From a virus: a stretch of 10,034 bases of DNA. The position numbers were made by a program, and so were the translations under genes. The notes under the pieces are model-generated. The model was given only the letters and a program-made list of their open reading frames with translations. It searched no databases and had not been told where the DNA came from. Where the stretch lies: UHGV virus genome UHGV-0306824; one strand, given 5' to 3'. Of this stretch, positions 1 through 10,034 are shown one piece after another (the first letter of the stretch is position 1; each line of letters opens with the position of its first letter).

Positions 1-183
1 GCGCGTACAAGCCGCTATATCACTGACACGACAAAAGAGCGTTATCACCAGTGCCAGAACGTGAATTGCAGCGCCACGTTCATCACTTATGAGTCGGTAC
101 AGAGATACATCGTGAAGCCTGGAGAAGTCCACGCCGTGAGGCCGCACCCGTTGCCGTCAGGGCAGCAAATTATGTGGATGTAA
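1..183 (+). CDS. ogr: Ogr-type zinc-finger late-gene transcription activator, C-terminal 60 codons (5' end lies outside the window)
   Basis: Frame 1 reads ARTSRYITDTTKERYHQCQNVNCSATFITYESVQRYIVKPGEVHAVRPHPLPSGQQIMWM then TAA at 181-183. This matches my recollection of the C-terminal part of the 72-aa P2 Ogr, including the second Cys pair (CQNVNC). The overlapping 71-aa minus-strand ORF (87..302) has no comparable signature. Confidence 0.85.
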   Translation, partial: ARTSRYITDTTKERYHQCQNVNCSATFITYESVQRYIVKPGEVHAVRPHPLPSGQQIMWM

Positions 184-192
184 TTACAAACA

Positions 193-222
193 GGAAGCCC
201 CTCAGTCGAGGGGCTTTTTTGT
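193..222. terminator. Intrinsic terminator hairpin between convergent ogr (+) and D (-)
   Basis: AAGCCCCTC (195-203), loop AGTC, GAGGGGCTT (208-216), then a T-run 217-220. It lies 12 nt after the ogr stop and about 30 nt beyond the D stop (253-255). On the minus strand the hairpin is followed by the weaker tract CCTGTTTGT. Confidence 0.55.
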
Positions 223-252
223 CTTATAAAACAAACAGATAAAATAAAAACA

Positions 253-1416
253 TCACTCATCATCTTCTGTTTCGTACTCCACATCAGAAAGCCTGACCTC
301 AAGCTCTAAGGACGTCGTGAAGCCGCTATTATTCAGAAAATGTGTCACCTTAGTGATTGTCCAGTCCTGCTCGTCTATGACGCGCTTAAAGCCTGACACT
401 CTGACCGGTGTTTCCGTGTAAATATCAGCACGACCAGTGGCAAGGCTGATGGAGAACTCCGCAACGCCCCGTTGCAGTTTATCCCACTTCGCCTGAGCGG
501 CGCGCATGGCCTGCGCTTTCGTGGCATATACCGTGGTCAGGGCAAAAACGTTGTCAGCTTCACCGGCCATGTATTCACCTTCGCGCGCTTCCGGTACTTT
601 TGGCGCTTTCTTCTGCGTGACTGGTTTCGCTTTCGGGTGCTCCAGTGCGCGCAGGTGTTTCTCTTTCTTTTTGCGTTTCAGTTTTACCTTCTGCTTTTGC
701 GGCTTCGGGTCTTTGGTGTGTAACCACTTTGCCGTTACGCCGGTATAGGCTCCACGGTCAGCAATCGCAAAATGATGGCGGTCGCCGTCGCTGCGGGTTA
801 TGGTGACCTGCGGGATTTTTTTACCGCTGGCCGTCACCCCCTGCCCCGCTTTGAGAAACAACAGTTTTCCCATTTTTACCGACACCTCACCGCCGTTGCG
901 TTCTGCAAGACGGGTCAGGAATTTCGCATCAGACTCCTGCGACTGGTCGATGTGCGGGATTTTAATTCCGGCCAGTGACGGAGCGACACTGGCTTCCAGC
1001 CTGTTACGGGAGGCTATCGCCTCAACAATCGCACCGAGCGTGGTGTCATGCCAGGAGCCTTCACGGCGGGAATTGAGCGTCCCGCGGAAATCTGCACTCC
1101 GGGCGCGGATGGTGACCACATCCGGCGCGCCCCGGTGTTCAACCTCATCAACGGTGAATTTCCCTTTGCATACCAGGGCAAAACCTTTCCAGCCGATATA
1201 CACCGTCAGGACAGCGCCACGAACCGGCAACCCGACCTGCCCGTCGGCATCGTTCAGTTCAATATCAAGCTGGTCAGCCTCAAAGCCCCGGTTATCCGTC
1301 AGGGTCATGCTCATCAGACGGTCGCTGATATTGCCGGTAATATCCCTGCTGTCGAGCATCAGCATGTAATCCGGCGTCAGCGTACTACCTGCATCAAATG
1401 TCAGCGCGTCCAGCAT
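253..1416 (-). CDS. D: P2 gpD-family tail protein (late control gene D)
   Basis: 387-aa ORF, last gene of the FI-FII-E-T-U-D block and the same length I recall for P2 gpD. Its ATG (1414-1416) overlaps the U stop by one nucleotide (TAATG), indicating translational coupling. It contains a Lys-rich linker at about aa 235-275. Confidence 0.88.
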   Translation of the reverse strand: MLDALTFDAGSTLTPDYMLMLDSRDITGNISDRLMSMTLTDNRGFEADQLDIELNDADGQVGLPVRGAVLTVYIGWKGFALVCKGKFTVDEVEHRGAPDVVTIRARSADFRGTLNSRREGSWHDTTLGAIVEAIASRNRLEASVAPSLAGIKIPHIDQSQESDAKFLTRLAERNGGEVSVKMGKLLFLKAGQGVTASGKKIPQVTITRSDGDRHHFAIADRGAYTGVTAKWLHTKDPKPQKQKVKLKRKKKEKHLRALEHPKAKPVTQKKAPKVPEAREGEYMAGEADNVFALTTVYATKAQAMRAAQAKWDKLQRGVAEFSISLATGRADIYTETPVRVSGFKRVIDEQDWTITKVTHFLNNSGFTTSLELEVRLSDVEYETEDDE

Positions 1417-1895
1417 TATCCCGCCCCCGTCATACCCGTGAATCTGGTCGCCATACTGCCAGCCTTACCGATGAGCGATTCCGCCTGTTTACCGATATCG
1501 CCATAAAGCGCGGCCAGTGATTCATCCACGCGGGTGAGCGACAACGTAAAATCAATTTTCCGGGGTGTGCCGTCTGCAAAGAAAATACTCCCTGTTTCAC
1601 TCACCCTGCTGATGACATACATGCCGTAAATCATGCCGGTGCCATCCAGCAACGGCCACGCCCGGCCTTCCTCTGCCATCAGCCTGAGCGTGGTCATCGT
1701 CAGCTTCCCGCCGGTCAGTTCGGGATAAAGCACGCCGGCAAGCGTCATGTTTTCCTCACCCACACCGAGAAACTGAAAGGCATCCCGTTTACCGATACGG
1801 GGATTTGACGGCCAGCGATAATCTGATTCGCGCTGCATGGTCTGGTGTGGCAGCGTCTGGCGCATAAAAACAAACATACCTAACGCGAGCATCAT
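1416..1895 (-). CDS. U: P2 gpU-family tail protein
   Basis: 159-aa ORF between T and D in the canonical P2 order; the length matches gpU as I recall it. Its stop overlaps the D start. Confidence 0.88.
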   Translation of the reverse strand: MMLALGMFVFMRQTLPHQTMQRESDYRWPSNPRIGKRDAFQFLGVGEENMTLAGVLYPELTGGKLTMTTLRLMAEEGRAWPLLDGTGMIYGMYVISRVSETGSIFFADGTPRKIDFTLSLTRVDESLAALYGDIGKQAESLIGKAGSMATRFTGMTGAG

Positions 1896-1909
1896 TTTTC
1901 GTCACCTCC

Positions 1910-4357
1910 TTAACCGTCATGCATCATGCTGGCACGGGCGCGCGCACGTTTATCCCGCTCGTATTTTTCGAGCGCATCCTGTAACTGGCGGTCGAGCTGT
2001 GTCCCCGGCGCAGTACCACCCGTCAGGCTGATGTGATATTCGTTTTTACTCTGGTCTACATAAGAGCGGCCAGCCGGTGCCGTGACCGGCTGATAAGCCT
2101 GATAACCTGCATAAGAGCTGGTCGCCGGAATATAACCACCGGTGCCATACGTGGCGGCATGAGTCCTTGCGGCGGTCTGGTCAAGTGTGTCTGACTCTTT
2201 GTTGATAACACCGAGTTTTTCCAGTACCCAGTCAATACCGCTGCGCAGTTTGTTGAACGCATTAAGCGGCAGCCTCAGCGCGTCAGCCAGTGCCTGCCCG
2301 AACATGACCCCCGTGTCACGGCAACTGTTCAGGGTGTCCTGAGTGGCTTTGACCGGGACAATCAGGTTTTTAAACCACTGCCACGCGGCCTGTAACTTTT
2401 CACCCAGCCAGTCAAACACCGGTTTCAGTGGCGTGAACAGCTCCCCCACCGGCGCAAATGCCGCTTTCAGCCCTTCAACCACACCGCCAAAGAATGCGCT
2501 GACAGGCTCCCAGTATTTACGGATAAGCAACGCCCCGGCGACAATGGCGGCCACCACAGCCACAACCGGCCAGCTAATCGCCCCGATGGCCGTCATAACG
2601 GCACTACCAACCGTCGTGAAGATTGCCCCCATTGCGCCTGCTGCCGCGATGATGGCATTGATGCCAGTGATAACCGGCCAGGCTACAAGACCAATTGCAC
2701 CGATGATGCCAATAAGCGCCAGCGCGCCACCGGCAATGATGCCAATGGTTGACGCCAGTGATTTGTTTTTCTGGATCCAGCCGTCGAGTTTTAACACATA
2801 CTTTGTGGCCGTCTGTGTGAGCTTACGCAGTGCGCCTTCCTGCTGGTCAAACAGGTCTGTCCCCACCGCCTCATAAGCGGACTGAAACTCCTTAAAGTCA
2901 CCGCCGAGGTTGTCCTGCATGATATTTACCAGCTCGGCGGTCTTCCCGTCTGAGGCTTTAAACTCAGCGGTCAGTTTGTCCAGCTTTCCGGTTGAGGCGG
3001 CAGTCATCAGCACGGCGGCGGCTGAGCTGGCCTCCTCCCCGAAAATGGTTTTCATGTATTCAGCCTGCTGGGCAGTACCGAGCCGGTTTTTCTCAAAACT
3101 GGCCTGCATTTCTTTCAGAATGGTAAATACTGGTCGGGTATTCCCCTTACTGTCTGAGGTTTTCACGCCAAGCTCTTTGAGTGCATCCCATGCTTTTCCC
3201 GTCGGTGCCTGCAGGCGACTTAACACGGCACGGCTTCCCGTCCCCGCCATTGAGCCTGTGATTTTTGCATCATGCAGCGCCCCGACCATTGCGGCGGTTT
3301 CTTCAATGCTGACACCGGCATTTTTTGCCACTGGTGCGGCATAGGTCAGCGCATCGCTCATGCCGTCAAAATCAGCGGCGGTTTTGTTCATCGTCATGGA
3401 GAGAACATCCCCGATATGAGCGACCTTATCGTTTGAAAGCTGAAAGGCGGATTTCATCCCCATCAGCAGGGCGGCGTTTTCTTCCATCGTGCGGCGGTTC
3501 GCCAGTGCCATATTCAGCGTGACCGGCGTTGCCGCCTGAATGGCATCAACATCCCCACCGGCTTTCGCAATGATAATCTGTGCACCGGCTGCATCATCTG
3601 CCGAGGCGGCGGTGTTGTCGCCGAGCTGGCGCGCCTGCTTGCGGAGCGCGGTCATTTCGGCGGAGTCTTTTGCCACTCCGAGCACGGCCTGCAATTCTGA
3701 GTTTTTCTGCGCAAACTCATAACCGGGCATCAGCAACTTAACTCCGGCCATCGTTCCCGCCGCCGCAATCCCCACACCGGCAGCGCCCACTGAGGCCATA
3801 TTTCCGGCCAGTTCCTTGCCTGCCTGATAACGCTGTTTTACTGCGTTAAGTTTTGCCTGTTGCGCACTGACACGAGCCAGCGCGTCACGCTGACGGTTAA
3901 GCTGTGCGGTGGTTTCACTGATACGGTTTTTCAGTCCCTGCTCATCATGTGCAAGATTGCGGGTATTAATTCCCACAGCGGCCAGTTCCCGCTGCTGGCG
4001 TTTAATGGAATCTGTCAGGCGGTTATATTTCGCCTGTAAGTCCTCCGCCGCACGCTTTGCGGATTCCAGCACTTTCGCCTGAGCACGGGTCGGACGTTCG
4101 GTATTTTTAAACTGTGTGGCAAGGGCTTCGGCCTCCTGCCGTGCCTTTTCAAGTGCATGACCAGTCACGGCGAGCTGTGCACTGGTCTTGCGGAATCCCT
4201 CAATACGGGATGCGTGACCGTTCAGCTCGCGCAGTGATTTTTGTGTTTCCCGGATATCCCCCGACAGCGACCTGCTCGCTGTACGGATGGATTTAAACGG
4301 GCGGGATGCCTGGTCAACAGCCCTGAGCAATACCTGTAATTTTACATTGTTACTCAT
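1910..4357 (-). CDS. T: Tail tape measure protein (P2 gpT-like)
   Basis: 815-aa ORF. The N-terminal half is coiled-coil-like and rich in A/Q/R/K/E; a long Gly/Ala/Ile-rich hydrophobic segment sits mid-protein (IGIIAGGALALIGIIGAIGLVAWPVITG...), as is typical of tape measure proteins. It lies directly downstream of E/E', and its ATG (4355-4357) overlaps the E' stop. Confidence 0.9.
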   Translation of the reverse strand: MSNNVKLQVLLRAVDQASRPFKSIRTASRSLSGDIRETQKSLRELNGHASRIEGFRKTSAQLAVTGHALEKARQEAEALATQFKNTERPTRAQAKVLESAKRAAEDLQAKYNRLTDSIKRQQRELAAVGINTRNLAHDEQGLKNRISETTAQLNRQRDALARVSAQQAKLNAVKQRYQAGKELAGNMASVGAAGVGIAAAGTMAGVKLLMPGYEFAQKNSELQAVLGVAKDSAEMTALRKQARQLGDNTAASADDAAGAQIIIAKAGGDVDAIQAATPVTLNMALANRRTMEENAALLMGMKSAFQLSNDKVAHIGDVLSMTMNKTAADFDGMSDALTYAAPVAKNAGVSIEETAAMVGALHDAKITGSMAGTGSRAVLSRLQAPTGKAWDALKELGVKTSDSKGNTRPVFTILKEMQASFEKNRLGTAQQAEYMKTIFGEEASSAAAVLMTAASTGKLDKLTAEFKASDGKTAELVNIMQDNLGGDFKEFQSAYEAVGTDLFDQQEGALRKLTQTATKYVLKLDGWIQKNKSLASTIGIIAGGALALIGIIGAIGLVAWPVITGINAIIAAAGAMGAIFTTVGSAVMTAIGAISWPVVAVVAAIVAGALLIRKYWEPVSAFFGGVVEGLKAAFAPVGELFTPLKPVFDWLGEKLQAAWQWFKNLIVPVKATQDTLNSCRDTGVMFGQALADALRLPLNAFNKLRSGIDWVLEKLGVINKESDTLDQTAARTHAATYGTGGYIPATSSYAGYQAYQPVTAPAGRSYVDQSKNEYHISLTGGTAPGTQLDRQLQDALEKYERDKRARARASMMHDG

Positions 4358-4777
4358 TCGTGTTTCCGCTTCGCCGGAGTGCCTTTTCGCGCCATGTGAT
4401 GAGTTCGGTCAGGCTCATGGGATACAGTTCTGATGGCGGCCAGTGAAATATCACTGCCACATCCGCCATCAGGTCATCGACCGAGAGATTTTTCGGAAAC
4501 GTTACTGCACCGAGTTCGGCGACAAAAAACCGACCACCTTACCGGCCAGCGCCACAAGGTCAGGCAGTTCCAGCGCGGCGACCTCCTGCTCGGTCAGCAT
4601 CGGTGCCGTCATGCGCGGCAGTACCTTAATCAGTGCATCGACTTCGGAGTTTGCAACCGCAGCCAGACTGACACCGCGCAGCGTCCCCGCACTGGGTTTC
4701 ATCAGCGTGACCTGTTCGATAACCTGCTCACCACGCTTGACCGGATTGTCCAGGGTAATCACATTTTCTTTGTTCAT
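4350..4777 (-). CDS. Tail assembly chaperone E+E' made by -1 programmed ribosomal frameshift (predicted 142 aa)
   Basis: After the minus-strand heptamer T TTT TTG, the -1 frame stays open for 57 codons (VAELGAVTFPKNLSVDDLMADVAVIFHWPPSELYPMSLTELITWREKALRRSGNTNE) and ends at TAA 4350-4352, which overlaps the T start codon. The arrangement parallels lambda G/GT and P2 E/E+E'. Confidence 0.7.
4502..4777 (-). CDS. E: Tail assembly chaperone E (P2 gpE-like), zero-frame product
   Basis: 91-aa ORF between FII and T, ending ...KVVGFLSPNSVQ*. It contains the slippery heptamer seven codons before its stop. Confidence 0.85.
   Translation of the reverse strand: MNKENVITLDNPVKRGEQVIEQVTLMKPSAGTLRGVSLAAVANSEVDALIKVLPRMTAPMLTEQEVAALELPDLVALAGKVVGFLSPNSVQ
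4523..4529 (-). other. -1 frameshift slippery heptamer T TTT TTG (plus strand reads caaaaaa)
   Basis: Read directly: the zero-frame codons are GGT TTT TTG (G-F-L of ...VVGFL). This is a classical X XXY YYZ site, placed where tail-chaperone frameshifts occur. Confidence 0.7.
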
Positions 4778-4805
4778 GGTTTTCTCACTTCTGAATCAGG
4801 GTTAA

Positions 4806-4826
4806 CCGGTCAGCCAGGCTGACCGG
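4806..4826 (-). other. Intercistronic stem-loop between FII stop and E start
   Basis: Perfect 10-bp inverted repeat CCGGTCAGCC a GGCTGACCGG, 8 nt past the FII stop (4834-4836) and about 50 nt before the E ATG. No U-tract follows on the minus strand, so it is not a canonical intrinsic terminator. Confidence 0.4.
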
Positions 4827-4833
4827 ATGAAAA

Positions 4834-5352
4834 TTACAGGCCGATATTTCGGCGGTGTTGCTCCAGCCGGTCGACGCCGTTCACCTTCTCAATCATGTTG
4901 ATGGTGTCGATTTCGACCAGCTCCTTACCGTCCATCGTCAGCCGGAAATAGGTGCAGACCACGGAGATTTTCGACTCGGTGTCTTCTCCCTGTTTACCCT
5001 CGCCGGTGTCGATTTCTTTCTGACGTCCACGCATGACCACTTCGACGGCCACCGTTTCGCCGGTATCGTCGCGCTGGTAAGAGCCTGCAAAACGAATCGG
5101 CACGGCATCCACACCGGTTGAGGCGTAAAGCTCCCAGATAACCGAATCCGGGAAGCCCCCGAGCGACCACTCCATTGACAGCGCATCGTCATCAAGGCCG
5201 AGGTCTACCGGTGCGCTGCCGTTCATCCCCGCACCGCGATAGTTTTCGAGCTTACGGGTCAGTTTTGGCAGCGTGACGGACTTTGCAACGCCCTGATAGC
5301 TGTAGCCGTTCAGAAAGACGTTCATTAACTTGAGTTTGCGCGGCATTGCCAT
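4834..5352 (-). CDS. FII: Major tail tube protein (P2 gpFII-like)
   Basis: 172-aa ORF immediately downstream of the sheath gene; the 12-nt spacer contains GGAG. Length matches P2 FII as I recall it. Confidence 0.9.
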   Translation of the reverse strand: MAMPRKLKLMNVFLNGYSYQGVAKSVTLPKLTRKLENYRGAGMNGSAPVDLGLDDDALSMEWSLGGFPDSVIWELYASTGVDAVPIRFAGSYQRDDTGETVAVEVVMRGRQKEIDTGEGKQGEDTESKISVVCTYFRLTMDGKELVEIDTINMIEKVNGVDRLEQHRRNIGL

Positions 5353-5364
5353 CGGTCAGGCTCC

Positions 5365-6555
5365 TTAATTGCTGTTAACCGAGGTGACCAGATTTGCCAG
5401 GTATTTATCGGTAATACGCTGGCGCAGGGTCAGGTTTTCGAGAGGAGGCACCGGGGTATAGTCGTAGTCGATATACAGTTTTCCGGCCTTGAGGGTTTCC
5501 GCATCGTTGGATTCTTCGCTGAACCAGCAGGTCGCATCCACGATATAGCCGTTTGTTTTCAGCTCACGGAATTTGGCATTGATGCCGTCAACGATGTCGC
5601 GAATCAGCGTTGCGGTGATGGGCTTGTCCACCGCCCACATGTGCGCCTCAGCCATCGTGTCGGCCAGCACCTGCGCGGTGCGGGTGTAGTTTTCAAAGAG
5701 GAACAGCGGGTCATCAGAGCAGGTACGGTTACCCCAGAAGCGGAAACCGTCGCGGCGAATCAGCGTAGTGACGCCTGACTCATTAAGCAGGTCAGCATCG
5801 GTGCCGGACTCCTGCAAATCCCAGAATACAGAGGCGCTGATGCCGGTAACACCGTTCACCCCGACATTGGACAGCGTTTTATGCCAGCCCTGCTCCTGGT
5901 CGATTTTGGCACGCAGCCCCAGTGCACGGGCGGTGGCATACGCGGTGGCGGTGGTACTGGTGACCGTATCCCATGCGAGGAAATCCGGCCAGATGACCAT
6001 CAGCTCACGCTGGCTGAAATTCTGGCGGTAAGCTTTCACCTCGGAAATGGTTTTACAGCCCCATGCGCTGATATACCCGAAAGCGCGCAGCTTCTGACAG
6101 ACTGATGCCAGTGCAACAGCCACCTCTTTGGTGTCCAGTCCCGGCACGCCGAGAATACGCGGTTTAACACCGGTTACCGACTCCGCCGCCAGCAGGGCTT
6201 TCAGTCCGGTGTACTGACCGTTTTCGTCGGTGGTGCCGATGATATTGGAAACGGTCTGCGCGAGTTTCGTTTCTTCGTCGTCGCCGGTGCCGTCTTCCAC
6301 GCGCACAACAACGGTGACCGGTTTTGACTGGTCAGCGATGGCCTGTAACGACGCCGCCAGCGTGCCTTTTTTACCGGCCTTTGCAATTGCGCTCTGCACA
6401 TTAGTAATCAGCACAGGTTTATTGAGGGGGAAGGTTTCCGCATCCGCATCGCTGGCCGTGCAGACCATGCCGACAATGGCAGTGGATACGGTGGAAATGA
6501 CGCGGGTGCCGTCGTTAATCTCCAGCACCTGCACGCCGTGATGATAGTCACTCAT
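5365..6555 (-). CDS. FI: Contractile tail sheath protein (P2 gpFI-like)
   Basis: 396-aa ORF, first gene of the block, with GGAG about 8 nt upstream of its ATG. Length matches P2 FI as I recall it. Confidence 0.9.
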   Translation of the reverse strand: MSDYHHGVQVLEINDGTRVISTVSTAIVGMVCTASDADAETFPLNKPVLITNVQSAIAKAGKKGTLAASLQAIADQSKPVTVVVRVEDGTGDDEETKLAQTVSNIIGTTDENGQYTGLKALLAAESVTGVKPRILGVPGLDTKEVAVALASVCQKLRAFGYISAWGCKTISEVKAYRQNFSQRELMVIWPDFLAWDTVTSTTATAYATARALGLRAKIDQEQGWHKTLSNVGVNGVTGISASVFWDLQESGTDADLLNESGVTTLIRRDGFRFWGNRTCSDDPLFLFENYTRTAQVLADTMAEAHMWAVDKPITATLIRDIVDGINAKFRELKTNGYIVDATCWFSEESNDAETLKAGKLYIDYDYTPVPPLENLTLRQRITDKYLANLVTSVNSN

Positions 6556-6663
6556 CCGTTTAACTCCGTGGTTAATGGGTGAGTGGTATTTTCAGTTGTG
6601 CCGGAGATGTCAGGCTATTTGTCCCGGTTGGCTAATCGACAGCACAACCACCGGTAAAGAAAA
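6556..6663 (-). promoter_or_regulatory. Putative late promoter and RBS region for the FI operon (expected to be Ogr-dependent)
   Basis: Only the position is supported: about 100 nt between the upstream terminator hairpin and the FI start. I searched for a perfect TGT-N12-ACA activator-site dyad and found none. Confidence 0.3.
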
Positions 6664-6682
6664 GGCGGGCAATTTGCCCGCC
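6650..6682 (-). terminator. Intrinsic terminator (minus-strand orientation) upstream of the FI promoter region
   Basis: GGCGGGCAA t TTGCCCGCC palindrome at 6664-6682. On the minus strand it is followed by TTTTCTTTA (reverse complement of 6650-6663). On the + strand there is no good T-tract. Confidence 0.5.
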
Positions 6683-6881
6683 TGTCCTGATTTGTACTCA
6701 CTCATTTTCCGACTGACAATTTACATAGCCCAAACGCTATCAAATCTGACAGTCTGCTTTGGGTAAACTGATAATGGGCAGAGCTTTGTATGGCTAACTT
6801 CAGCATGATACCTTACAGTCAAGCTGACAAAAGGCGGAATGATTATTCGTTGATACACATCCTCCTGTAAGGAAACAAAGC

Positions 6882-7652
6882 ATGTATAAAGAACTTATAG
6901 AACAGAGACTGAATGAGGCAAAAGCCGCCAGAGCTGCGCTGAGCAAGATTAATGGTGTAATTGTCGAAAAAACACACAACCCTGACCGCGGACTGTATCT
7001 CGTTAATTATGCCAATTTACTTATGAACAGGCAGATAGACATCTTCGATGATGCGCTTCTCCTCCTCGAAAACGAACGATACCAAAGCGCTTGTATTGTT
7101 AGCCGAGGAATGATTGAAACTCATGCCTTCTCACGACTCTTAAACAAGAAAGTAGAGAAAATTTTGACTACCCAAAATGGACACGCAAGTGTAGATAACG
7201 CTATCGAAGTTATATTGAACTTTACGAATAGTTCTCGATTTAAAAAGTCAGAGCAAGAAAAGATTCAGAAAGAAGTATTTGACCCGAACGACTACATGTT
7301 TACTGAGGAGGCTAAATATCGTTTTGAAAACCTACTTGCTGTCAGTATGCATGTGATGACTGCTTTACGCGAACTCTATAAAGATGAGATGAAGCAGACT
7401 AATCAGATGGAAAGTGATTTTGAACTGACTTATGACATACTTAGCGAATATGTTCATCCTTCACAAACGAGCATCTACCACTACTACACACCTGAAACCC
7501 ACTTAGTTCCTACTTCGGTTGGTAATATTCATACTTATGTGCATGCTCAGCTACAATGTGTGAGAGCGCTACTTTTCATATTAGAAGCAAAGAGTCAACA
7601 TTATTGGTCTACACAGTTAGCAAATGAGATGACCAAACGAGCTAAAGAGTAA
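6882..7652 (+). CDS. Hypothetical protein, 256 aa; cargo gene at the G-FI moron position (P2 Z/fun-type site)
   Basis: Uninterrupted ORF with AAGGA 8 nt before its ATG. It is visibly more AT-rich than the flanking tail genes, opposite in orientation to the late operon, and predicted mostly helical. No motif I can assign, apart from an R-x5-H stretch (SRGMIETH). Confidence 0.75.
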   Translation: MYKELIEQRLNEAKAARAALSKINGVIVEKTHNPDRGLYLVNYANLLMNRQIDIFDDALLLLENERYQSACIVSRGMIETHAFSRLLNKKVEKILTTQNGHASVDNAIEVILNFTNSSRFKKSEQEKIQKEVFDPNDYMFTEEAKYRFENLLAVSMHVMTALRELYKDEMKQTNQMESDFELTYDILSEYVHPSQTSIYHYYTPETHLVPTSVGNIHTYVHAQLQCVRALLFILEAKSQHYWSTQLANEMTKRAKE

Positions 7653-7767
7653 GGCCTAAGCCCTGCAATGTGTTTATTTGAAAAATATTTCAATTTTTTC
7701 TTTGTATGCTGTAAATGACCTGAGTCCCTCTGACCAGAGAGCCTTGATGTTATCAATGTCCGCTCCT

Positions 7768-7900
7768 GGCACAGAGCGGACTGTCAGATTAGGGGTTACT
7801 CTGTGTTATAGATATGTGAGCTCACACCAGAGCTTATACAGCTTATTGTGGCATTTCCGGCCATTCAGGATTTGCAGGATCCACACGACTGACCAGAACG
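7768..7900. repeat. R1 copy a: 133 bp comprising the last 19 codons of a minus-strand tfa plus 75 bp of its 3' flank
   Basis: About 92% identical by eye (roughly 10 mismatches) to 8456-8588 in the same orientation. Confidence 0.8.
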
Positions 7901-7997
7901 CTGTAGCGTTCCCATGATTCCAGTCGGCTACGCTCCTCATCTGTTGCCATGTTCAGTCTGACCGCGCGCTCCAGCGGCAAAATCACGGATTCGGCAT
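7843..7997 (-). pseudogene. Tail fibre assembly protein (P2 gpG / Tfa family), 3' remnant only
   Basis: Minus strand reads [50 protein letters not shown], a Tfa-family C-terminus. The frame runs only 57 codons back to an in-frame TGA (rc of 8017-8019) with no start. Homology to the + strand tfa copy stops abruptly at about 7997. Confidence 0.7.
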
Positions 7998-7998
7998 T

Positions 7999-8106
7999 AT
8001 TGTTCAGGATACCGGCTCAAACTCTGCCGATAGCATTGGTGGCATATATTACAGACCGGTGCAGAAATACATTAACGGGACATGGTATAACGTAGCGCAG
8101 GTATAA
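7999..8106 (+). pseudogene. Possible 3' fragment of a tail-fibre (H/Stf-like) gene, directly upstream of the + strand tfa
   Basis: Frame reads ...[36 protein letters not shown] with its stop 3 nt before the tfa ATG (TAA ttt ATG). That is the usual fibre-chaperone spacing, but the assignment rests on context only. Confidence 0.35.
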
Positions 8107-8250
8107 TTTATGCAGCATTTAAAAAATATTACGGCGGGTAATCCAAAAACGGTTGAACAATATCAATTGACAAAGAATTTTGATGTTGTCTGGTTTTTTT
8201 CAGAAGATGGTAAGAACTGGTACGAAGAACAAAAGTATTTTGCTGATGAC

Positions 8251-8367
8251 ACGATAAAAATAGCGTACGACAAAGATAATATCATCCACTATGTGGAAAA
8301 GGATGTGACAGCTATCAGACCGGATGGATTAAGTGTTGTTGAAGTGGCGGATATTACTGCTAACCGA
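8251..8367 (+). repeat. tfa-internal 117-bp direct repeat, copy 1
   Basis: 115 of 117 identical to 8586-8702; the mismatches are A/G at two positions (gacaaAgat vs gacaaGgat; catccActat vs catccGctat). Confidence 0.85.
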
Positions 8368-8455
8368 GCTGGAGCTGGTTGTGTTTAATGAAAAATTACA
8401 ATTTTAATACGTCCGCTGTACACCCTTAGCTGCCGTTAGCTTAACGTCCGCAACA
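8368..8455 (+). repeat. R2 copy 1: 88-bp element at the breakpoint inside tfa
   Basis: GCTGGAGCTGGTTGTGTTTAATGAAAAATTACAATTTTAATACGTCCGCTGTACACCCTTAGCTGCCGTTAGCTTAACGTCCGCAACA, identical to 9130-9217. Confidence 0.85.
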
Positions 8456-8588
8456 GGCACAGAGCGGACTGTCAGATTAGGCTTTACTCTGTACCATAGA
8501 TATGTAAGCTCACACCAGAGTTCATACAACTTATTGCGGCATTTCCGGCCATTCAGGATTTGCAGGATCCACACGACTGACCAGAACG
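8456..8588. repeat. R1 copy b: inverted tfa 3' end (last 18 codons, ..[18 protein letters not shown]) plus 3' flank, lying inside the + strand tfa
   Basis: About 92% identical to 7768-7900. It encodes on the minus strand exactly the C-terminal residues that the + strand tfa lacks. Confidence 0.8.
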
Positions 8589-8702
8589 ATAAAAATAGCG
8601 TACGACAAGGATAATATCATCCGCTATGTGGAAAAGGATGTGACAGCTATCAGACCGGATGGATTAAGTGTTGTTGAAGTGGCGGATATTACTGCTAACC
8701 GA
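8586..8702 (+). repeat. tfa-internal 117-bp direct repeat, copy 2
   Basis: See copy 1; it shares ACG (8586-8588) with the end of R1b. Confidence 0.85.
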
Positions 8703-9129
8703 CGGGCGGACATTTCAGGGGGCTGGATGTTTAAGGACGGAAAAGTGATTAAACGCATTTATACGGCAGAGGAATTGCAGCAGCAGGCAGAAAACCGGAA
8801 AGCCAGACTTCTTGCAGATGCTGAATCCGTGATTTTGCCGCTGGAGCGCGCGGTCAGACTGAACATGGCAACAGAGGAGGAGCGCACACGGCTGGAGGCT
8901 TGGGAACGCTACAGCGTTCTGGTCAGTCGTGTGAATTAATAGTCTTTATTAATCATAATATTTAAATAATTAGGCTGCTTTTTTAATTGAACTATAAAGA
9001 ATAAGCAACCCACTCAATAAGATACACTTTATTTATTCTGGTGCAATATTAAAAACGCATAATAAGTGTCATTTTCATTGCTCGTGAATGCCATTACTCT
9101 TAAATCGTGATCCGGTTCAAAATTTAGAG

Positions 9130-9217
9130 GCTGGAGCTGGTTGTGTTTAATGAAAAATTACAATTTTAATACGTCCGCTGTACACCCTTAGCTGCCGTTA
9201 GCTTAACGTCCGCAACA
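9130..9217 (+). repeat. R2 copy 2: 88-bp element abutting the 5' end of the DarT-like frame
   Basis: Identical to 8368-8455. Its last 11 nt supply the in-frame codons R-P-Q just before the DarT-like sequence; an in-frame TAA sits at 9204-9206. Confidence 0.85.
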
Positions 9218-9218
9218 T

Positions 9219-9545
9219 GTTTATCATTTTACATACATTGATAATCTTGAGGGAATTATAAAAAATGGATTACTTAGTACAAATTTAAAATCAAATAGAG
9301 GCATTATTCATAAAGATATAGCAAATAATGAAATACAACACCGTCGTAGTGAAATGAGGGTCACTTGTGGTCCAGGTGGAGTGGTCCATGATTATGTGCC
9401 TTTTTACTTCACTAAAAGATCTCCCATGTTACTTAATGTTATTAAGAAAAAAAACGTAGATCAAGAAGGAATTATATATCTTGCGATACCAATAGAGGCG
9501 ATAGAAGATAAATCAGTAGTTTTTTCAAATTCTTACCACATTTAA
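9219..9545 (+). pseudogene. DarT-like DNA ADP-ribosyltransferase toxin (DUF4433-like), N-terminal part; no start codon and truncated at a rearrangement junction
   Basis: Frame reads VYHFTYIDNLEGIIKNGLLSTNLKSNRGIIHKDIANNEIQHRRSEMRVTCGPGGVVHDYVPFYFTKRSPMLLNVIKKKNVDQEGIIYLAIPIEAIEDKSVVFSNS then SYHI*. The motifs YHxT..NL, GGxxHDYVPFYF and SPML match what I recall of the DarT family. There is no ATG/GTG/TTG between the upstream TAA (9204) and the conserved N-terminus; the first ATG is at 9354. Confidence 0.55.
9418..9534 (+). repeat. R3 copy a: 117-bp perfect direct repeat inside the DarT-like frame
   Basis: Identical by eye to 9685-9801 (GATCTCCCATGTTACTTAATG...TTTTTTCAAATTCTT). Confidence 0.85.
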
Positions 9546-9605
9546 ATCATGAAAGTAATGATGATCAAATGATCTAGAATCACAACGAACATCAAAATTA
9601 TTAAA

Positions 9606-9685
9606 CCCATATTTTTTCAATAGCTGTGCAACATGCGTTTTCACGCAAAGATTCCAAACAACAATAAATGAAAAATTATTGAAGG
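9606..9685. repeat. Inverted copy (reverse complement) of 9955-10034, the DarT-like 3' coding segment
   Basis: Perfect 80-bp inverted repeat; I checked 9611-9660 base by base against 9980-10029. The pairing reaches the window edge, so the repeat may extend to 9535 on this side. Confidence 0.85.
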
Positions 9686-9801
9686 ATCTCCCATGTTACT
9701 TAATGTTATTAAGAAAAAAAACGTAGATCAAGAAGGAATTATATATCTTGCGATACCAATAGAGGCGATAGAAGATAAATCAGTAGTTTTTTCAAATTCT
9801 T
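9685..9801 (+). repeat. R3 copy b
   Basis: See R3 copy a. Confidence 0.85.
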
Positions 9802-10034
9802 CTGCAAATACTTTAACGCCACCAACATTTTACTCTAATGCTGATGATTTAAATAAGCTAAATTGGGATGCAATTGACAGTAGAGTGTGGATCCCAAAGA
9901 CCGAAGGAGTAAAACAGCAAAAAATGGCAGAGTTGCTTATTCATGATGAAATTCCCTTCAATAATTTTTCATTTATTGTTGTTTGGAATCTTTGCGTGAA
10001 AACGCATGTTGCACAGCTATTGAAAAAATATGGG
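9693..10034 (+). CDS. DarT-like toxin, C-terminal portion; frame open to the window end (3' partial, lacks the N-terminal region)
   Basis: From ATG 9693: MLLNVIKKKNVDQEGIIYLAIPIEAIEDKSVVFSNSSANTLTPPTFYSNADDLNKLNWDAIDSRVWIPKTEGVKQQKMAELLIHDEIPFNNFSFIVVWNLCVKTHVAQLLKKYG, 114 codons with no stop. The ..KMAELLIHD.. helix fits the Glu-containing catalytic motif of ADP-ribosyltransferases. It is absent from the ORF track only because it runs off the edge. Confidence 0.5.
   Translation, partial: MLLNVIKKKNVDQEGIIYLAIPIEAIEDKSVVFSNSSANTLTPPTFYSNADDLNKLNWDAIDSRVWIPKTEGVKQQKMAELLIHDEIPFNNFSFIVVWNLCVKTHVAQLLKKYG
9955..10034. repeat. Right arm of the inverted repeat (coding orientation of the DarT-like gene)
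   Basis: Reverse complement of 9606-9685. Confidence 0.85.

Follow-up and report, generated by a model that had tools for sequence, protein, structure and literature searches.

An 88-nt repeat at the breaks in tfa and darT of a P2-like prophage sequence, probably a by-product of overlapping re-copying

Why should one 88-nt sequence stand at two separate breakpoints of a P2-like prophage, once inside a broken tfa gene and once against a darT gene that has lost its start? The two copies of this sequence, R2, could be a recombination site, a small mobile repeat or a trace of how the locus was put together. We addressed the question in the window (the whole 10,034-nt stretch analyzed here) by following R2 into natural genomes and by mapping the sequence around both copies onto an intact locus.

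An 88-nt repeat and its natural setting

A repeat search of the window returned R2 (repeat family D4) as 88 nt, 100% identical between copies, with a spacing of 762 nt, in agreement with the initial annotation, which had placed two identical copies about 760 bp apart. Our own calculation puts the chance expectation of a perfect 88-nt repeat within 10 kb at about 1e-45. Copy 1 directly follows codon 86 of a tfa-like ORF at 8110-8388 (8110 + 258 = 8368), as had been described. Copy 2 was said to abut the DarT-like gene where its start codon should be, and this holds in part: the copy does end at 9217 with DarT-homologous sequence starting at 9218, and the translation of 9219-9533 matches positions 1-107 of the Pfam DarT profile, but the junction is not at the start-codon position, the first 29 nt of the gene being absent by comparison with an intact darT (L003 CDS 4417-5751). 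The in-frame codons ahead of the DarT N terminus, CCG CAA CAT after a TAA at 9204-9206, do come from R2, and both the AT-rich first half and the internal direct repeat reported for R2 are present, with ACGTCCGC found twice inside it. Six more long repeats (D1, D2, D3, I1, I2 and I3), returned by the same search, crowd positions 7755-10034, suggesting that R2 is one symptom of something larger.

The initial annotation had proposed a copy-number search with the 88-mer. It gave a uniform answer: each natural genome with R2 has it once, and its context is always the spacer between tfa and darT. As a refutation, the initial annotation had named an element that is single-copy elsewhere and owes its duplication in the window to misassembly; the first part of this holds. 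Twelve natural loci carry one copy each, 11 of them exact and one, on a Klebsiella plasmid, at 97.7% identity. Among complete E. coli genomes, 3 of 5426 have the 88-mer, once each; other exact single copies in the same context come from two IMG/VR contigs, one JGI metagenome contig and five further prophages. The 88-mer occurs in 0 of 185,579 species-representative (GTDB) genomes and in none of the GenBank phages.

At every locus, R2 lies in a spacer of about 410 bp between tfa (P2 gene G, tail-fiber assembly) and darT, on the strand opposite darT and about 250 nt (250-337) upstream of the darT start. The gene order at the three E. coli loci is tfa, the spacer with R2, darT, a macro-domain gene (darG) and the tail sheath gene, and the darTG toxin-antitoxin cassette occupies the G/FI (Z/fun) hot spot, where P2-like prophages carry cargo. 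This site, next to fun, has been documented as a locus for defense genes in P2-like phages (PMC9519451). Promoter-like hexamers are present outside R2 (L003 5959-5916) at a frequency no higher than in shuffled sequence, and a terminator search of the R2 spacer region found none.

The 97.7% copy lies on the K. pneumoniae IncF plasmid p4-KP21300, 248 nt upstream of darT and with no phage around, and because it keeps the same distance from darT, we assign R2 to the darTG cassette. In coordinates of the DarTG-type locus L003, which serve as the reference throughout, p4-KP21300 and the prophage have 3011-6102 in common, while DUF5677-type P2-like prophages share the reference only up to 3022 and again from 6076. 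From these limits of homology, the first 75 nt of R2 (reference 6001-6088) belong to the distal end of the darTG cassette, and the last 13 nt enter GTCCGC-N12-GCGGAC, a conserved hairpin at the boundary of the phage backbone. R2 is a member of nothing but the darTG upstream spacer. That spacer has one R2 copy in nature, whereas the window has two, one of them fused head-on to a 5'-truncated darT.

Positions 1014-4102 of p4-KP21300 (L029) hold the whole darTG cassette, including the 410-bp upstream spacer, at 96% identity, and the homology stops exactly after GTCCGC-N12-GCGGAC, which is also the cargo/backbone boundary in P2-like prophages. The window has this hairpin at 7758-7781 and 8446-8469. 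It may be a point of cargo exchange.

Excerpts of one locus on alternating strands

When the window was aligned by BLAST to natural loci, positions 7755-10034 resolved into eight excerpts (152-376 nt) of a single locus of about 1.7 kb, with the strand strictly alternating from one excerpt to the next (Table 1). The template spans the end of H, tfa and the spacer, and runs into darT. Excerpt B is 99.7% identical to the DUF5677-type locus L005 (11607->11232) and 96.8% identical to the DarTG type; because it is closer to the former, we conclude that two phage genotypes served as templates, one for A and B and the other for C to H.

Table 1. Features of the window, excerpts of the reference locus L003 and the repeats that their overlaps produce. 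Excerpt strands are relative to the reference.
Feature	Window position	Strand	Reference interval	Length (nt)	Description
Flipped left piece	1-223	+			3' part of ogr plus terminator; L002 1501->1279 joined to L002 1589
Normal P2-like prophage core	223-7992	-			Genes D, U, T (tape measure), E, FII (tube), FI (sheath), then cargo gene, then 3' end of tfa
DUF5677 cargo gene	6882-7652	+			256 aa, Pfam E = 1.3e-10; in the G/FI hot spot
Excerpt A	7755-7992	+	6076->6318		DUF5677-type genotype; last part of the normal core
Excerpt B	7993-8367	-	6809->6434		End of tail-fiber gene H and tfa codons 1-86, flipped; DUF5677-type genotype
Excerpt C	8368-8588	+	6001->6221		Spacer end, hairpin 8446-8469, antisense 3' end of tfa; 100%
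Excerpt D	8589-8933	-	6550->6200		C-terminal two thirds of tfa, sense; 100% up to the junction
Excerpt E	8934-9217	+	5803->6088		tfa-darT spacer, antisense to darT; 100%
Excerpt F	9218-9534	-	5722->5406		darT, sense, from codon 10 (last base) to about codon 115; Pfam DarT 1-107; 100%
Excerpt G	9535-9685	+	5101->5252		darT, antisense; 100%
Excerpt H	9686-10034	-	5525->5173		darT, sense; Pfam DarT profile 68-186; 100%; cut by window end
R2 copy 1	8368-8455	+		88	Opening 88 nt of excerpt C; bounded on the left by the B/C breakpoint
R2 copy 2	9130-9217	+		88	Closing 88 nt of excerpt E; bounded on the right by the E/F breakpoint
Repeat D1 (AC)				146	Intersection of reference intervals A and C
Repeat I1 (AD)				119	Intersection of reference intervals A and D
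Repeat D3 (BD)				117	Intersection of reference intervals B and D
Repeat I3 (CD)				22	Intersection of reference intervals C and D
Repeat D4, R2 (CE)			6001-6088	88	Intersection of reference intervals C and E
Repeat D2 (FH)				120	Intersection of reference intervals F and H
Repeat I2 (GH)				80	Intersection of reference intervals G and H

The pairwise intersections of the eight reference intervals reproduce, to the base, all seven long repeats of this region. Since R2 is the overlap of C (6001-6221) and E (5803-6088), its two ends are two unrelated breakpoints. The right edge of copy 1 is not a breakpoint, because colinearity with the reference runs on to 8588, and neither is the left edge of copy 2, because colinearity there begins at 8932. 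The stretch of about 1.7 kb comprising the end of H, tfa, the spacer and part of darT is written out in eight excerpts on alternating strands, in a zigzag; excerpts C and E both take in reference 6001-6088 and so leave R2 in two places, with its left end given by the start of C and its right end by the stop of E. R2 is therefore very probably a by-product of overlapping re-copying rather than a genetic element, and an "element at breakpoints" is not a real feature of the locus. One of the initial suggestions, a leader copied along with rearrangements, came close to this: R2 belongs to the spacer ahead of darT, and the rearrangement copied it twice.

Over reference 5101-6809, the sole stretch absent from the window is 5723-5802, which comprises the first 29 nt of darT and the 51 nt directly upstream. 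It is missing between E and F (9217|9218), and the ribosome-binding site of darT would fall in those 51 nt. Its absence may be a coincidence, about 5% of the template being uncovered, or a trace of selection against toxin expression.

Two other readings of R2 had been put forward, and both fare poorly against this map. As a recombination site, R2 would be the crossover point of an invertase or integrase that made the rearrangements or marks cargo boundaries. Its 3' end does overlap the conserved cargo/backbone hairpin, right after which the plasmid cassette ends, and related P2-like prophages (L020, L023, L024 and L028) have a resolvase-type invertase and inverted tfa genes at the same hot spot. 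The breakpoints, however, are one-sided and on opposite sides of the two copies, only 5' of copy 1 and only 3' of copy 2, and the other six junctions are without R2. Copies in direct orientation would give a deletion, not an inversion, and duplication of sequence is not an outcome of site-specific recombination. The excerpt map contradicts the idea. A search for a motif shared among the junctions found none, a search for hixL, gixL or cix-like sites gave no match within 8 mismatches, and no invertase or resolvase gene is annotated in the colinear prophages over the core region. We regard a crossover site as very unlikely. The other reading, a small dispersed repeat (MITE, REP or ERIC-like) inserted twice, is more improbable still. 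All it can point to is a pair of identical copies 762 nt apart. R2 is single-copy per genome in nature and rare overall, and in the window both copies run on colinearly into the same reference locus past the 88 nt. The ends of R2, GCTGGAGC... and ...CCGCAACA, are not complementary and so form no terminal inverted repeats; the flanks differ, with no target-site duplications; folding is no better than that of shuffled sequence (z = +1.24 and +1.57); and an Rfam search with R2 gave no match. We also considered the scar of a Datsenko-Wanner cassette, because GGCTGGAGCTG resembles the P1 priming site, and rejected it, since FRT is missing and natural genomes contain these bases as well.

The core, the left end and the uniqueness of the arrangement

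Between the scrambled right end and a short piece at the left, the window is an ordinary prophage. The core (223-7992) is colinear with, and 98-98.7% identical to, many ordinary prophages. Its cargo gene encodes a DUF5677 protein that we regard as a candidate defense gene because of its hot-spot position; an identical protein is found in 212 assembly-index blocks, always between the sheath gene and tfa.

At the left junction, the flipped piece, which carries the 3' part of ogr, abuts the stretch upstream of gene D in inverted orientation; the microhomology here is 1 nt, and the join leaves out 87 nt of natural sequence. The ogr terminator, a CCCCTC-agtc-GAGGGG hairpin followed by a T-run, lies at 198-223. 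We examined this junction as a prophage attachment site and discarded the idea, as it lies about 47 nt inside the prophage end. Positions 1-723 of the window are 100% identical to L002 (E. coli LR-28, AP027512, 1-12088). This DarTG-type P2 prophage at yegQ is heavily degraded: large parts of it are deleted, and its portal remnant is inverted; darT, darG and tfa are intact.

Within the core, positions 223-5200 form an exact patchwork of kilobase blocks in which the DarTG type (L019, L021, L022, L026 and L027) alternates with the DUF5677-type L005, and the same patchwork is present in a single Logan contig from SRR11412778. The pattern resembles the outcome of ordinary recombination among P2-like phages. 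That the core is a bubble-popping chimera, made from two co-resident phages, we consider unlikely, as the blocks are kilobase-sized and hold dozens of consecutive sites from one parent.

The arrangement at the right end has no counterpart in the collections searched. In the 5426 complete E. coli genomes, no single place accounts for more than 63-79% of the rearranged stretches, and the three DarTG genomes match them at two positions, on opposite strands within a 1.4-kb locus. Neither IMG/VR nor JGI metagenomes nor GTDB representatives contain a 34-mer that spans E/F, and three ORFs that depend on the junctions (92, 63 and 103 aa) were not found among 15 billion proteins or in a gene-position index. 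An exact match to the tape-measure protein came from a single Logan contig only (run SRR11412778); over window 1831-6581 this contig has 2 mismatches (99.96% identity), and it stops short of the scrambled ends.

Origin of the zigzag

The junctions share a geometry. All eight switch strand, and seven of the eight combine a jump of 273-491 nt ahead in the direction of travel with a reversal; the E/F junction instead jumps 366 nt backwards. Seven of them fall within 2.3 kb and one lies at the left window end. Their microhomologies are 1, 1, 0, 3, 2, 0, 1 and 1 nt, and by our own calculation random joins are expected to have 0 nt in about 56% of cases, 1 nt in 28% and at least 2 nt in 16%. Microhomology of 0-3 nt is thus at chance level.

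Three known systems produce sequence of a related kind. In chimeras from multiple displacement amplification (MDA), at least 2 nt of complementarity is found at 93.5% of proximal inverted junctions, and chimeras occur about once per 10-22 kb (PMC1855051, Lasken & Stockwell 2007). As in MDA inverted chimeras, every junction in the window is a strand switch, the pieces are proximal (<10 kb, with jumps of 273-491 nt) and there are intervening "deletions"; in contrast to them, the density of junctions is about 100 times higher, only 2 of the 8 junctions have at least 2 nt of complementarity, and two template genotypes are involved. Rearrangements by template switching during replication include the tandem inversion duplications of Salmonella and complex rearrangements of the FoSTeS/MMBIR type, usually with microhomology or quasi-palindromes at the junctions and with two to three segments. 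The window resembles these in its alternating direct and inverted overlapping local copies and in duplicated stretches that end at breakpoints, but it has eight to nine segments and near-blunt joins. Invertible tail-fiber segments (Gin/Cin/Pin-type, in Mu, P1, e14 and some P2-like prophages) likewise have tfa in both orientations beside the tail-fiber region, whereas the window is without an invertase gene or crossover sites, its darT is scrambled, and its segments are duplicated, not flipped. The zigzag, then, works like known strand-switch chimeras, whether MDA or template-switch, and has only some of their defining features.

A true tail-fiber switch does exist among relatives of the window. 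In L020, L023, L024 and L028 (about 2200-4800 of each), which have an identical gpD protein, a resolvase-family invertase is found at the hot spot together with two opposed tfa genes and tail-fiber tips. This is a natural invertible host-range switch, absent from the window.

As to how the zigzag arose, we infer that it is most likely a chimera formed in vitro or in silico rather than in the cell, and we hold this with some, not strong, confidence. Strands could have been switched during amplification or library construction, or pieces mis-joined in assembly, gap filling or contig-end extension. This origin is favored because both window ends are flipped while the 7.8 kb between them is normal, because two phage genotypes (A and B against C to H) are bluntly joined, and because the microhomology is about that of random joins. 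The jumps of 273-491 nt and excerpts of 152-376 nt, which are on the scale of short-read library fragments, argue in the same direction, as does a resulting locus that is useless to the phage and has no other record. Several features speak against an artifact. The sequence is clean, with no indels and 100% identity, and it is contiguous through exact repeats of 80-120 nt, a result that takes either reads in consistent agreement or one long accurate read; rare chimeric short reads that arose independently would not link up into eight junctions; the MDA chimera profile fits only in part; and the absent segment, the darT start with 51 nt upstream, is a pattern explicable by selection in a living cell. 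Among the artifact routes we considered simple concatenation of read pairs: its geometry fits seven of the eight junctions, but we rejected it because every excerpt would need to be shared between two pairs as a mate and because some are longer than 300 nt.

The alternative is a genuine rearrangement in vivo of a decaying prophage, in which R2 would still be a by-product. Serial, nearly homology-independent strand switches or illegitimate recombination would have scrambled tfa-darT and inactivated the DarT toxin, with another P2-like prophage or remnant, of the DarTG type and resident in that cell, as template. All junctions being clean and contiguous agrees with such an event, and the only missing segment covers the start of darT and its 51 upstream nt in a gene that is also broken at about codon 115. 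Several P2-like prophages are common in E. coli genomes (median of 2 matching places per genome), the DarTG-type prophage of strain LR-28 is itself heavily deleted and rearranged, and darT is naturally split in strain S1-SRB-02-B and in L019. Against it stand the absence of the arrangement from 5426 complete genomes and from every other collection searched, the use of two genotypes as templates, the separate flipped piece 7.8 kb away at the other window end, and the 0-1 nt of microhomology at six of the eight junctions. Such short microhomology is unusual for template switching in E. coli. We consider an in vivo origin possible but doubtful on balance. Its most specific form, a real chromoanasynthesis-like event with eight or more nearly homology-independent strand switches between two co-resident P2-like elements, exact loss of the DarT translation start and a broken gene, is improbable, and replication stalling induced by DarT on ADP-ribosylated single-stranded DNA may have promoted such an event. 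To an origin other than artifact or genuine rearrangement we assign only a slight chance.

The natural splitting of darT is visible in the annotations: the gene is given as two CDSs of about 89 aa and 340-349 aa in S1-SRB-02-B (L001 4418-5751) and in CP181796 (L019 1931-3264), so that in some DarTG prophages, intact in other respects, the toxin gene has a natural interruption.

One model of overlapping excerpts covers R2, the other repeats, the "break" in tfa and the "start-less" DarT, and these should accordingly not be counted as separate observations. The main value of the result is one of caution: an annotation should not turn such features into elements, sites or gene fusions. Should the organism itself carry the rearrangement, this would count as a rare case, in bacteria, of a toxin gene scrambled by multi-step strand switching.
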